64,000 bases of DNA from a virus, in the IMG/VR virus record IMGVR_UViG_3300045988_108212, positions 1 to 64,000 of that record. One strand, 5' to 3'. Positions 10,162 through 14,682 of the stretch are shown piece after piece. Below the pieces are notes generated by a model, which was not told the origin of the DNA, searched no databases, and worked only from the letters and a program-made list of their open reading frames with translations. The translations under genes and the position numbers were made by a program. Numbering within the stretch: position 1 is the first letter of the stretch; every line of letters begins with the position of its first letter.

Positions 10162-10271
10162 AAATTAATGTCGATGTTTTACCTGCTATCATCGTTTGCG
10201 TACAGAGATATTTCATCTCTAAGCAGGGAATTCAAATTCAAATTTTATGTAAAAAACGACTATCAAAAAGT

Positions 10272-10292
10272 CCTTATTTTATAAGGTTTTTT
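10272..10292 (+). terminator. weak hairpin with T-run just after the ribozyme core
   Basis: CCTTAT-TTT-ATAAGG followed by TTTTTT. Confidence 0.35.
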
Positions 10293-10557
10293 GAAGATTG
10301 GCAATTTGGCGAATTGTGTCTTATTTTATACAAGGTTGCTAAAATCAAGTTTATTTCTATACTAACCAATGTAAGGAACTTATTTTGGTAATAAGAACGA
10401 CTCATGACCGTTCTTTATTATATCGAGCAGTGGACAGGCAGAGTAATTAACTGCCGAGCGGAACTTCATTTTCTCCTCAACTTTCATACGCATCCACTGC
10501 TCTACTCTATTTAAACTGTTAATGTTAGAAAGTTGAGAGAACTGGAGAAAAAATATT

Positions 10558-11292
10558 ATGATCAACACTAAAGATAATTTAGAAATTATGGAATTCGTAA
10601 ACGATAACAATGGAATGTCTGTCAGAACAATTTTAAACCCAGACGGTAGTGTGTCAATGAATGCTGAAGATACAGCTGTTGGATTTGGATGGACTAGAAT
10701 AAAATATGGAAAAGAGTATGTAAAATGGGATAGATTAAATTCTTACATTAAGGATATTGGATTTTCCCCACTTGTGGGGAAAGATGATTTTATCCCAGAA
10801 ACACTATTTTATCTTTTGGGAATGAAAGCATCTAATGATAAAGCAAAAGAATTTCAAATGTGGCTTGCCAAAGATGTTATTCCATCCATCAGAAAACATG
10901 GGGCGTTCATTGCTGATTCTCCAAATGTAGATATCGATTATGTAAAGAATGAGATTAAATTTAGTACAAAATGTACCATTAAGACTTTTAGAAACGCAGA
11001 TGTTTCAGAAATCAAATCATTGTATTCTGAATTCAAAAGTTATGTTGATGATGAATTCAAATATGAATCTGCTAAAAGAATATCTCGTTATAAGTCAGTC
11101 GAGAAAGGATTACAACAGTTACATGATCGTTTAGCATCCGAAGATATTTCTAATGTTGGAGATTGTTATAATATTAGAAAATTAAAAGAACAGGTTATTT
11201 TAGATCGTACTACTCTTGAAAAAAGAGTGAGCGGTGGACAAAAAGCATATATGTCAAAACGAATTGACGATCTTGAAAAGCAAATTGGTTGA
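10558..11292 (+). CDS. Bro-N domain (antirepressor-like) DNA-binding protein, intron cargo
   Basis: Bro-N hallmarks are present: VRTILNPDGSV..NAEDTAVGFGW and AKEFQMWLAKDVIPSIRKHGAF. No nuclease motif was seen. Confidence 0.65.
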   Translation: MINTKDNLEIMEFVNDNNGMSVRTILNPDGSVSMNAEDTAVGFGWTRIKYGKEYVKWDRLNSYIKDIGFSPLVGKDDFIPETLFYLLGMKASNDKAKEFQMWLAKDVIPSIRKHGAFIADSPNVDIDYVKNEIKFSTKCTIKTFRNADVSEIKSLYSEFKSYVDDEFKYESAKRISRYKSVEKGLQQLHDRLASEDISNVGDCYNIRKLKEQVILDRTTLEKRVSGGQKAYMSKRIDDLEKQIG

Positions 11293-11345
11293 ATGTCGAA
11301 TGCATTTGTGATATGATAAATATACATAAATTGAATATATAATCA

Positions 11346-11442
11346 AGAAGTTATTTGAGGTGGTAAAATTCGTTGCAACCACGCACCCTATGGGTTAAAA
11401 GAGATGTAGGAGAGGCGACGCCTACCAAATAACTTCTTTTTT
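11346..11442 (+). terminator. branched structure closed by a perfect 12-bp helix, with T-run
   Basis: AGAAGTTATTTG (11346..11357) pairs with CAAATAACTTCT (11426..11437), then TTTTTT. The interior has at least 3 small stems. Confidence 0.45.
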
Positions 11443-11451
11443 ATTACAGAA

Positions 11452-11491
11452 AAATAACCGCCTCACCTGGTAAGTAAGCGGTTATTTTAAT
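11452..11491 (+). terminator. hairpin terminator
   Basis: AAATAACCGC pairs with GCGGTTATTT, followed by T-rich sequence. Confidence 0.5.
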
Positions 11492-12084
11492 AAACGTATA
11501 AATATCAGGCGAACCGTTATCAGTAACACCTTTTTCTATTATCATAATATCATTGGAATCTTGAAATGTCAATAACAAAAAAACAGTCTATCAGAAACCA
11601 CTTACGGCAACTAATAGACTGCAAATCCTTTGGAAATGCAATGACGAACTTGGAAGATAACTCGTTGCATTTCTTGTAAACTTAACCGTATAACTTGACG
11701 ATAAATAAGTTATATGGGATATTTTTATATTAATACAGAGATATTATTTTGTCAATAATTTGTTGCAATAAGCTGATTTATGGTAGCAATGGTTATTTCT
11801 ACGATATTGAGAGGTATATATGGAATATAAGAAATTAGATAAAGAAATTTTAGAGCATAAGAATTGTAGGATCGCATCAAGCGTCGAAGCACTGAAAAAT
11901 GTAATTTCGATGCAATGGTCTGATGAAGTGATCAATGGATTTAAAAAAGTTATAATTGGTAAATATAATCTGAAATAGTGTGTTTTATACCAAATTTATA
12001 CAGTATTTTGTAAATTATTATTGTTGAAATTTGTCATAAATGTTACAATAATAAATGATTACAAAATAAGGCGGTATAAATAAA

Positions 12085-12849: not shown

Positions 12850-12865
12850 ATTTTTTAAAAATTAC

Positions 12866-12894
12866 TTGACATGTTATATATAAGTAGTTATAAT
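12866..12894 (+). promoter_or_regulatory. consensus sigma-A-type promoter
   Basis: TTGACA (12866..12871), a 17-nt spacer, then TATAAT (12889..12894). Confidence 0.6.
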
Positions 12895-12900
12895 AAAATC

Positions 12901-13033
12901 AATGGGATCGAGAATATGAAGGCGCTGGTGTACTCCAGTAGAAAGTCGTTTACAAAATAGCAATATTTTGTGTTAAAGTATTCAACCGAACCCATCAATA
13001 AGCGACCCTAATCTTAATGGTTAGGGTCTTTTA
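12901..13033 (+). ncRNA. about 130-nt transcript of unknown function between the consensus promoter and a terminator
   Basis: The promoter is as above. The terminator is GACCCTA/TAGGGTC (13004..13028) followed by TTTT. Only a 14-codon ORF lies inside. The 5' end is inferred. Confidence 0.45.
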
Positions 13034-13201
13034 TTATATAATTCTATTAATTATAATATTTTAATAGAACATGCGTTTTCAAACAGATAATCTATATAAT
13101 TTTATAAAGACTATTAGAAAAATATTATTTAGATTTTAATAAGTAAATAAGAGAGGACTCTCAATCCTCCCTTCTTTAATATTCTCTTTTGTATTTTTAC
13201 C

Positions 13202-14032
13202 TTACCATTTATAACCACAGTTATTACATTTATATGTTTTTCTAACATTTGAACTCAAGAAACCAACTGCAAGGAATCCCATTGCCTTTTTTCCTGCACT
13301 GATCTTCTCAATGTTGGTTGATCCACAGGTTGGACAGTGCGGGATGTTTTGGGCTGGTTCTTGTGAATTTGACGGCTCGACTTGTTCTGGATGCATTTCA
13401 TCATATCTATTTGCTAAATCATCTAAAATCCTATCCATAATTAATTTTGGATACACATTGTCAAAGTCTTCTGGAAAGGATAATGGAATGTATTCATATT
13501 TGTTGATTTCTATAATTAAGTTATCGGCTTCACTTTTATTTAATTGCTGTATTTTGCGAATTGTTTTACATCCAGATAATGTCACGCCACCAAATTTATC
13601 GACCTGTTCTTTGATAGACGAGAAATCATATGGTATATAATGAATATAACAAGTTGTATTATTCGCTTCAAGTTTTAATCGCTGTTCAAAATATTCTTCG
13701 TTTGATAAAATTTCGTATGTTTCTGGTATACGGAAGTTTTTCATAATTTCTGCAATAAAATTAATTTTACTATAAATTGATATATCCAACTCTGATTGAT
13801 CAAGTATATCAACAATTCGTTTCATAGCTTTGTCGTTTTCCCATTCTTGCATATAAGCAGCGACATCTGACAAATCTAGCTCAATTCCATTTATATTACA
13901 TTTTGTATTCTTATTAACGTTATTTACATACTGTGTAGCAATATAGCCAGACAATGGAAATCCGCAATGAATACAAGTTTGAGCTTTATCAGAAACTTTT
14001 GCGCCACATTCAGGACATTTTATTAACGCCAT
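13202..14032 (-). CDS. double zinc-ribbon protein, intron cargo (paralogue B)
   Basis: ATG at 14032 lies 8 nt after AAGGAG. N-terminal CPECG..CIHCG. The C-terminus CPTCGSTNIEKISAGKKAMGFLAVGFLSSNVRKTYKCNNCGYKW is shared with the upstream gene. Confidence 0.7.
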   Translation of the reverse strand: MALIKCPECGAKVSDKAQTCIHCGFPLSGYIATQYVNNVNKNTKCNINGIELDLSDVAAYMQEWENDKAMKRIVDILDQSELDISIYSKINFIAEIMKNFRIPETYEILSNEEYFEQRLKLEANNTTCYIHYIPYDFSSIKEQVDKFGGVTLSGCKTIRKIQQLNKSEADNLIIEINKYEYIPLSFPEDFDNVYPKLIMDRILDDLANRYDEMHPEQVEPSNSQEPAQNIPHCPTCGSTNIEKISAGKKAMGFLAVGFLSSNVRKTYKCNNCGYKW

Positions 14033-14052
14033 ACTATACTCTCCTTTGTTGC

Positions 14053-14595
14053 CTACCATTTATATTTGCATTTATTACATTGGTATGTTTTACCAATGTT
14101 TGAACTCAATATTCCTAGCATCATACTACCAATCACTCGTGAAGTTGCACTAATTCTTTTAATGTTGGTGCTTTGGCAATTAGGGCAATGTAATTGTTGA
14201 GATTTTCTTAATTCAATTCTTTGCTGAATTTCTTTTTCTTCTTTCTTCTTTTTATCATATTTTTTATAAAATTCAATCGGAATTGTACTAGGAATTGTAT
14301 GATATTTTTTGCAATATTGTTTTATAGACCATCTATCTTTTTTCTTTGACGCCTTACACTCATTTTTAATTTTATGTTTGATAATATTGTCATAATCAAA
14401 CCAAGTATCATCTTGTTCGTACTGTTGTAAAACAGTTTGCAGTTCGTTTTTTAAATTAATTTTGACCCCATAAACATTACAGAAACCATCAGTAGATTCT
14501 TCTGTTTTTTGCACAATCTTATTACCGCATAAAGGGCAAACTTGTCTGCTTAAATCTTCTGTTGTATATTTACATTTTTTACATTTATAAATCAT
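14053..14595 (-). CDS. double zinc-ribbon protein, intron cargo (paralogue A)
   Basis: N-terminal CKKCKY..CPLCG and C-terminal CPNCQSTNIKRISATSRVIGSMMLGILSSNIGKTYQCNKCKYKW. Confidence 0.7.
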   Translation of the reverse strand: MIYKCKKCKYTTEDLSRQVCPLCGNKIVQKTEESTDGFCNVYGVKINLKNELQTVLQQYEQDDTWFDYDNIIKHKIKNECKASKKKDRWSIKQYCKKYHTIPSTIPIEFYKKYDKKKKEEKEIQQRIELRKSQQLHCPNCQSTNIKRISATSRVIGSMMLGILSSNIGKTYQCNKCKYKW

Positions 14596-14682
14596 GGCAG
14601 CAAATCCTTTCTTACATATTTTTAATTATATAACAATTATATATAAGAACGCAACTTATATTATAAATATCGCACACTTTTG

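Follow-up and report, generated by a model that had tools for sequence, protein, structure and literature searches.

The tape-measure gene in the IMG/VR virus record IMGVR_UViG_3300045988_108212 lies in two parts, and the locus raises the question of whether these are two genes with an ordinary gene island between them or two exons joined by the splicing of a group I intron that carries the island inside it. We examined positions 1 to 64,000 of that record (64,000 nucleotides [nt], hereafter the window) in light of an earlier note on it, which had proposed a group I intron whose 3′-terminal long-range helix closes around an endonuclease-free island of genes on both strands. The observation itself was confirmed, and the interpretation is supported, as far as sequence comparison reaches, by compensatory changes in the ribozyme, a conserved junction, mosaic cargo, and intron-less alleles. 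We consider it probable that a group I intron in the tape-measure gene reaches a distant 3′ splice site via the helix P9.0, that the loop thus closed serves as a bay for accessory cargo, and that the intron is spliced in cis from a late read-through transcript.

Tape-measure gene in two parts

The source of the window is an SPbeta-like temperate phage of Lachnospiraceae in the gut. In its relatives, the neighboring genes belong to the YomU, YomV, YomW, and YomN Pfam families, and a weak YomG-type domain was found in the window itself. The two parts of the tape-measure gene are as follows.

7214..9754, + strand: tape-measure exon 1, 847 codons, C-terminus ...IKLFKNLG, from the open reading frame (ORF) list
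14683..21939, + strand: tape-measure exon 2, 2418 sense codons, N-terminus SFKNLGDE

Fusion of 9754 to 14683 is in frame and gives a product of 3265 residues, which is colinear through the junction with uninterrupted homologues that are single polypeptides. Exon 1 matched PF10145 and tape-measure PHROGs, aligning to positions 219-938 of a 2625-position tape-measure PHROG, and it ends at an in-frame TGA made by intron bases 9755..9757. Exon 2 lies within a 2419-codon ORF that opens at 14680, with no Shine-Dalgarno sequence upstream. Gene calls in relatives stop at or just past the same KN(L/F)(G/D) site, and exon-1 homologues from metagenomes stop there even at 25-50% identity.

The comparison set comprised 80 viral contigs and 34 bacterial genomes (loci are cited by L numbers), in which the tape-measure site is either uninterrupted or interrupted by approximately 1.6 to 7.9 kilobases (kb). 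Uninterrupted alleles, which align colinearly across the junction, occur in more distant relatives (L076, L082, and many prophages). The comparison that the earlier note had suggested thus yielded intron-less alleles at this distance, and no cargo-less intron at this site was seen in the set. L058 and other loci had been taken as cargo-less because of a gap of ~530 nt; these were rejected, as the next ORF encodes a metallophosphatase that belongs to the cargo, and exon 2 follows only after another 3.4 kb.

Group I ribozyme in the 5′ module

The interruption begins with a strongly conserved module in which a group I ribozyme can be folded. The model was checked against an alignment (A2) of 28 different 5′ modules taken from related loci and has the following parts.

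9755..10307, + strand: conserved intron 5′ module, with P1-P2 extensions, catalytic core, 5′ strand of P9.0, P9, and a terminal A/U-flanked hairpin
9750..9754 (UAGGU) with 9789..9793 (GCCUA), + strand: P1, with a U9754.G9789 wobble at the 5′ splice site; paired in 28/28 variants
9757..9762 with 9775..9780, + strand: hairpin in the P1 loop, predicted from sequence
9784..9788, + strand: P10 guide AGUGA, adjoining the P1 strand
10013..10153, + strand: catalytic core, P3-P8
10013..10017 with 10099..10103, + strand: P3
Between P3 and P4, + strand: J3/4, AAA
10022..10025 with 10058..10061, + strand: P4, compensatory changes in 3/4 pairs
10038..10041 with 10053..10056, + strand: P5
10092 and 10094..10098 with 10148..10153, + strand: P7, R-like GUUCAGAGACUA and S-like AAUGUAUAGCCC
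10109..10118 with 10130..10139, + strand: P8, pairs seen in the alignment
10182..10187 with 10222..10227 (CCUGCU / AGCAGG; span 10182..10227), + strand: P9 hairpin, with an inner hairpin inside
10263..10294, either strand: A-tract, hairpin, and U-tract, bidirectional terminator-like (-10.5 kcal/mol, z=-3.7); conserved with the 5′ module, which it closes

The 5′ module is 90-100% identical across 48 related loci, and similarity ends at 10307..10317. Helices P3-P9 pair in the 28 variants, a change in P1 (A9751G) gives a G.U pair, and all P9 pairs form, with one compensatory change in L004. Double changes were found in six ribozyme pairs, against 1.0 in shuffled alignments (0/500 reach six) and 0-2 in slid controls. 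Furthermore, conservation is higher in the module than in the adjoining exon (97% nucleotide identity versus 87.5% amino-acid identity between L036 and L037). Judged by this variation, the ribozyme is under purifying selection. P3′ directly adjoins P7, and there is no IA2 core of the P7.1/P7.2 type. The core is present in one copy per contig in 47 viral contigs, always in the tape-measure gene.

Database searches returned little for this module. Rfam searches at gathering and at E<=10 (5.5 kb of the window and seven related loci) gave no group I match, and the Rfam group I model also misses the other intron types examined at this tape-measure site. Neither the region nor the core had a match among cultured phages by megablast or blastn. 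An initial manual core (P3 at 9868, "P4" at 9876/9914) was discarded since it was contradicted by the variation; RNAalifold gives a long peripheral hairpin there.

Long-range P9.0 helix and the predicted 3′ splice site

The earlier note had reported that the bases directly after P7′ are complementary to those directly before omega-G, and the two strands are indeed found at these coordinates.

10154..10161 (AAAAGTGT; RNA AAAAGUGU), + strand: P9.0 5′ strand, directly 3′ of P7′; invariant in 28 variants
14674..14681 (ACACTTTT; RNA ACACUUUU), + strand: P9.0 3′ strand, exact complement of AAAAGTGT, with omega-G 14682 next to it

This long-range helix had been described as P9-type; by its geometry, the 8-bp pairing is an extended P9.0 rather than P9, and it closes a loop of 4.5 kb. 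The 3′ splice site is predicted between 14682 and 14683, and the P10 guide AGUGA (9784..9788) pairs with exon 2 UCAUU (14683..14687). The 9-mer ACACTTTTG is expected only ~1.3 times per 128 kb, counting both strands, and its presence exactly at the in-frame junction is therefore not attributable to chance.

The junction is also kept where its surroundings are not. Close relatives have at least seven otherwise unrelated 3′ flanks, which differ in the last gene, the non-coding sequence, and exon 2; between flank types, exon 2 shares only ~62% protein identity. All of them keep [AC]AC[AG]CUUUUG followed across the splice site by UCA[UC]U, that is, a terminal CACTTTTG followed by TCAYT. This end and the 5′ module occur together in ~40 close relatives. 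The A-to-G variant in the P9.0 3′ strand retains a U.G pair, and the U-to-C variant in exon 2 turns the P10 G.U pair into G-C. The same arrangement, with different bases, recurs in another intron lineage that occupies this site (L073 and L046): the bases directly after P7′ (AACGA, GCGAU) pair across the cargo with those directly before omega-G (UCGUU-G, AUCGU-A-G), and exon 2, as deduced, keeps the reading frame. GAACGCAA, also conserved near the 3′ end, is more readily accounted for by the -35 box of an antisense promoter than by pairing with UUGCGU (10195..10200) in a further long-range helix.

The end of exon 1 (TTTAAAAACCTAGGT, FKNLG; 9725..9757) and the start of exon 2 (TTTAAAAATTTAGGC, FKNLG; 14680..14705) form an imperfect direct repeat in both DNA and protein. 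Such a repeat is not required, because other exon-2 types read SFKELG, SLKSLG, or SLKDIG.

These data bear on the possibility that nothing is spliced, so that the phage makes two tape-measure proteins (847 amino acids [aa], and 2419 aa from TTG 14680) on either side of a relic ribozyme and an ordinary intergenic moron island. Every type does have an in-frame TTG ahead of exon 2, gene callers report the locus as two genes, and P7 contains a mismatch (see below). Against this, the TTG has no Shine-Dalgarno sequence, the homologues are single polypeptides, compensatory changes maintain the ribozyme helices, and the P9.0/omega-G/P10 motif is kept in unrelated flanks. We regard this alternative as very unlikely, because exon 2 lacks a ribosome-binding site and the ribozyme is more conserved than the exon beside it.

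Cargo between the core and the 3′ splice site

The cargo between the core and the 3′ splice site amounts to ~4.4 kb with genes on both strands. The earlier note had placed it at 10162-14673; the multi-gene, bidirectional island stands, and its variable part starts near 10308, since the stretch from 10162 to ~10307, with P9 and the terminator-like hairpin, is conserved in 48/48 close relatives and on that ground belongs to the intron. The features of the cargo are as follows.

10558..11292, + strand: Bro-N / anti-repressor-like protein, 244 aa (Pfam E=1.6e-6, anti-repressor PHROGs); present in 11-12 of the related loci
11350..11433, + strand: skipping-rope RNA (RF02924, 68.3 bits vs gathering 36.7)
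11451..11488, + strand: terminator hairpin of the skipping-rope RNA, z=-3.7
11538..11781, + strand: central conserved non-coding block with three strong hairpins (fold z=-6.1), separating two variable cargo bays
12085..12849, + strand: DUF3800 protein, 254 aa (Pfam E=3e-14); present in 7 loci
12866..12894, + strand: consensus sigma-70-type promoter TTGACA-17-TATAAT, 12/12 match
12901..13033, + strand: RNA of ~130 nt (fold z=-5.1), with an intrinsic terminator at 13004..13028
13149..13173, - strand: terminator of the antisense operon
13202..14059, - strand: double zinc-ribbon protein, 285 aa (phrog_2546), paralogue of its neighbor at 14053..14595
14053..14595, - strand: double zinc-ribbon protein, 180 aa (phrog_2546), C-terminal CPxCxSTNI...CNKCKYKW, abutting the 3′ splice site
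14654..14649 and 14630..14625, - strand: promoter of the antisense operon, TTGCGT-18 nt-TATAAT, within the last 60 nt of the intron

Most of what the earlier note had read from the letters was borne out: the Bro-N and DUF3800-like proteins, a small RNA (12901..13033) driven by a consensus promoter, and two paralogous antisense zinc-ribbon genes (13202..14595) were all recovered. Some details changed. The antisense promoter is real and is kept in every 3′ flank type as TTGCGT-17/18-TA(T/C)AAT, with a spacer in the window of 18 nt rather than 16 nt. Among three supposed sense-strand terminators, the structure at 11346..11442 is the skipping-rope RNA, and the other two stand, at 11451..11488 (the terminator of this RNA) and 13004..13028. 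The stretch noted as ORF-poor and hairpin-rich proved to contain the near-universal block 11538..11781.

The skipping-rope RNA scores above the family's gathering threshold, has a 3′ terminator, and has a DUF3800 gene 650 nt downstream; it is also present in loci without the window's DUF3800 gene. The association of this RNA with DUF3800-type genes is published and unexplained (PMC5737381). The ~130-nt RNA, for which no Rfam family was found, sits 52 nt downstream of the DUF3800 gene; it may be another DUF3800-associated motif, because such genes associate with many unrelated RNA motifs (PMC5737381). The block at 11538..11781 is ~92% identical in 42-46 of 48 close loci, with neither an Rfam family match nor clear covariation, and may function in regulation, as an RNA element, or as an anchor for recombination. 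The cargo also includes a 52-codon ORF. The tandem zinc-ribbon paralogues form direct repeats with 851-nt spacing; no recognizable catalytic domain was found in the zinc-ribbon protein, which gave one weak match among cultured phages.

Searches with Pfam, PHROGs, PADLOC, and NCBIfam detected no homing-endonuclease, transposase, or integrase domain in the cargo, in agreement with the earlier note on endonucleases; the endonuclease classes tested were LAGLIDADG, GIY-YIG, HNH, His-Cys, PD-(D/E)xK, and EDxHD. None of the four cargo proteins matched a PADLOC model. The cargo lacks terminal direct or inverted repeats.

Cargo exchange among related phages

Within the close clade (48 loci), window positions 9600..~10307, the block 11538..11781, and the 3′ end are conserved, and the remainder is a mosaic. 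For example, a block from ~11565 to 13243 travels as a unit in 7 loci, and the middle of the 285-aa zinc-ribbon gene was found in 0 of 48 close relatives. Across 67-69 loci, the cargo comprises 441 ORFs in 104 families, with orientation fixed per family, and each locus holds 2 to 9 cargo genes on both strands. Gene content therefore varies between conserved flanks in close relatives, as expected of an accessory-gene hotspot. Domains were identified by scanning representatives (those of the commonest families, together with several large ORFs and some others), and no endonuclease, transposase, or integrase was found among those scanned. The families identified in relatives were as follows.

ToxN/AbiQ: 7 loci and a Konateibacter prophage
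PemK/MazF: 11 loci
DUF2513: 19 loci
SocA-Panacea: 4 loci
PIN: 1 scanned locus (L085)
NYN: 2 loci and L002
Rha: 8 loci
Bro-N/ANT: 10 loci
Metallophosphatase: 4 loci

The cargo usually opens with a sense gene, and in 69/69 loci it ends, next to the 3′ splice site, with an antisense gene. In most listed loci, including those of other intron lineages, the last gene encodes a double zinc-ribbon protein ending in CPxCGSTxI...CxxCGYxW, with hydrophobic residues between the two motifs.

This mosaic bears on the possibility that an independent mobile element (an insertion sequence [IS], a transposon, or an integrative island) landed in the intron in the manner of an IStron. There is precedent in the IStrons of Clostridia and Bacilli, group I introns whose 3′ part can house an IS element (PMC4227781, PMC3984707), and a TnpB gene lies nearby (5501..6604). 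This gene is outside the intron, however, and no transposase, integrase, or endonuclease was found in the cargo of the window or in the scanned representatives. The piecewise variation between conserved intron modules is that of a recombination mosaic, and the element is single-copy and site-specific. The earlier note had named repeats of its own around the block, unrelated to the intron helices, as what would speak against an intron; neither flanking repeats nor transposition genes were found. A transposon or IS origin was rejected on the missing repeats and the domain searches, and we consider an independent insertion of any of these kinds extremely improbable.

Other clades carry sequence-divergent introns at the same site, with L002 representing one type and L046 and L073 another. 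The R and S elements of L002 are like those of the Tetrahymena intron. At the P7 position equivalent to 10095/10151 of the window, the unrelated L046-type intron has an apparent C.A mismatch, and L002 and L073 have standard pairs. In addition, some relatives (L019, L021, L037, L040, and L017) have as many as three more optional insertions in exon 1, located after window residues 635, 688, and 744. These are either ORF-less and ~340-350 nt long or 1.3-1.6 kb long with an ORF of the DUF7487/"EWDGSGHD" (EDxHD-like) or HNH-like kind. A 3′ ...AAAGTAACA motif is common to them. In appearance they are classical mobile introns, and this tape-measure gene would accordingly be a multi-intron gene. Because other positions carry ordinary optional introns, splicing is plausibly a part of its normal expression.

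Directly upstream of the tape-measure gene, on the + strand, lie a tyrosine recombinase gene (4372..5397), the IS605-type TnpB (OrfB) gene (5501..6604), and a transfer RNA gene (7063..7133). At the same place, relatives L001 and L004 have a reverse transcriptase gene, accompanied in L004 by an Avd-like gene, which suggests a diversity-generating retroelement. Elsewhere in the window, the NrdD gene (anaerobic ribonucleotide reductase; 59653..63000, - strand) is broken by an intein with a LAGLIDADG homing endonuclease.

Proposed mechanism and evidence on both sides

The whole ribozyme (P1 to P9) lies within the first ~550 nt of the intron, and in the mechanism that we propose, P9.0 and P10 would bring the 3′ splice site, 4.9 kb downstream, to the guanosine-binding P7. 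The cargo genes have their own host-type promoters and terminators and face inward from both ends, the first usually directed away from the ribozyme and the last always away from exon 2. With this inward-facing layout, host polymerase starting at cargo promoters would never enter exon 2 or cross either the ribozyme or the 3′ splice site, so that a lysogen could express the cargo without transcribing either splice site and without leak into the late genes. When the phage grows lytically, the late transcript would read through the cargo, the ribosome would depart at the UGA opening the intron, and splicing would fuse ...KNLG to SFK... to give a single 3265-residue tape measure. The 5′ module, the central block, and the 3′ promoter with the P9.0 strand may act as homology arms through which co-infecting relatives recombine and shuffle cassettes.

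Several observations weigh against this mechanism or parts of it. Three to four hairpins resembling intrinsic terminators (among them 10263..10294, 11451..11488, and 13004..13028) stand on the sense strand before the 3′ splice site, and the antisense operon converges on the sense transcript between the core and that site. For a host-type polymerase, the sense-strand terminators are a real obstacle. SPbeta late genes form one long operon read by the processive polymerase YonO, which ignores pause signals and lacks the flap domain for hairpin termination (PMC5467207), and by analogy host-type terminators would be irrelevant to late transcription of a YonO type; a search for such a polymerase in relatives returned 80 loci, all Bacillus-like. 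P7 contains an invariant A10095.C10151 mismatch beside the guanosine-binding pair. Rfam Intron_gpI (RF00028) matched only partially (10013..10122), with the isolated core as query and at 10.3 bits against a gathering threshold of 50; this weak match nonetheless indicated the correct P3 and P4. The changes in P9.0 are one-sided, because its 5′ strand never varies. Finally, the exact junction of the close clade in spliced or intron-less form was not found in viral and metagenome collections.

In the search for YonO, some of the genes in IMG/VR Bacillus-type contigs (L136, L194) matched over ~3.75 kb for 822 residues, which implies an insertion of ~1.3 kb, either an intron or an intein.

The terminators and the head-on operon lend some weight to a different route to the same product, in which the intron is bipartite and splices in trans: the late transcript would stop after the ribozyme, exon 2 with the 3′ piece would come from a separate sense start in the cargo, and the two would be joined via P9.0 (8 bp) and P10 (5 bp). 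The conserved 5′ module does end in a terminator-like hairpin, with more terminators downstream, and its catalytic parts are all in the 5′ piece, so that ~10 nt would be required of the 3′ piece. Nevertheless, the 87-nt stretch from the last gene to the 3′ splice site has no conserved sense promoter, its only conserved promoter firing antisense; thirteen base pairs are little for bimolecular assembly; and the second intron lineage has no terminator after the ribozyme, L073 having a sense promoter at that point. To our knowledge, natural trans-splicing group I introns are confined to organelles, which we also counted against this route. We therefore consider splicing in trans unlikely and retain cis splicing of the read-through transcript as the preferred reading.

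A further, tentative idea concerns why such a layout might persist. The intron could be a selected "safe harbor" that couples lysogenic expression of the cargo to lytic synthesis of the tape measure, although we regard this as doubtful. On such an account, the cargo (defense, toxin-antitoxin, anti-repressor, and DUF3800 genes with RNA) might be on in the lysogen while the splice sites are silent; the tape measure would then need transcription across convergent units, with the ribozyme conceivably holding the 5′ exon or assembling in trans. Equally speculatively, cargo transcription, the antisense zinc-ribbon gene, or the central RNA block might gate tail assembly, and the intron ends might perhaps act as universal recombination arms that swap defense cassettes among gut phages.

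Comparison with known systems

The architecture has precedents. In the T4 nrdD (sunY) intron, a coding sequence lies between the 5′ core and a short 3′-terminal piece, and long-range P9.0 and P10 pairings deliver the 3′ splice site; the intron described here resembles it in having the ribozyme core at the 5′ end, a distant, short 3′ piece, and P9.0/P10. The two differ in content, since sunY has one sense ORF of ~0.8 kb for a homing endonuclease (I-TevII), whereas the interruptions described here span 1.6-7.9 kb and hold 2 to 9 genes on both strands, with their own promoters and terminators, structured RNAs, and no endonuclease. IStrons (CdISt1 and BcISt1) likewise occur in Firmicutes; a group I ribozyme capable of splicing forms their 5′ end, and their 3′ end contains foreign DNA before the 3′ splice site (PMC4227781, PMC3984707). 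They combine IS200/605/607 elements encoding TnpA/TnpB with an IA2 ribozyme containing P7.1/P7.2, in multiple dispersed copies of ~2 kb each; by contrast, the present intron has no transposase, its P7 abuts P3′, and it occupies a single fixed site with variable accessory genes. Ordinary phage group I introns (T4 td, SPO1/SPbeta; PMC3984707) are self-splicing and, like the present intron, lie in essential phage genes, but they are optional and carry one endonuclease, whereas the intron at the KNLG site is fixed in its clade and carries none. P2/P4 prophage and satellite hotspots (PMC9122126) also exchange defense, toxin-antitoxin, and regulatory genes between conserved flanks in similar phages; there the flanks are protein genes and the position is intergenic, whereas here two ribozyme ends are the flanks, inside an essential structural gene.

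The earlier note had called such an intron undescribed in phages. With sunY and IStrons as precedents, this does not hold for the architecture. For the type of cargo the word is justified: the full-text literature yielded no account of an intron that serves as a hotspot for several accessory or defense genes, with most subscription journals lying outside the search.

Significance

The usual picture of a group I intron is a compact element with no cargo beyond a homing endonuclease or, in IStrons, a transposase. At this site, kilobases of accessory and defense genes, transcribed independently and exchanged rapidly, are enclosed in the loop that precedes the 3′ splice site, inside an essential structural gene. 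The finding is broader than that of the earlier note, because the layout is an architecture conserved throughout a clade: ~70 related phages and prophages share it, with ever-changing, often defense-related cargo, and it recurs over a large clade of human-gut Lachnospiraceae phages. Annotation pipelines currently split the locus into "two tape-measure genes plus hypothetical proteins." Cultured lysogens with such prophages include Robinsoniella peoriensis CCUG 48729, Konateibacter massiliensis Marseille-P3773, and Mediterraneibacter hominis NSJ-55. If the predicted splicing is true, the intron would set a new record of size and complexity among bacterial group I introns, and these phages would offer a natural system for a ribozyme coping with a minutes-long delay, terminators, and head-on transcription, as well as a new type of defense hotspot with flanks of RNA structure.

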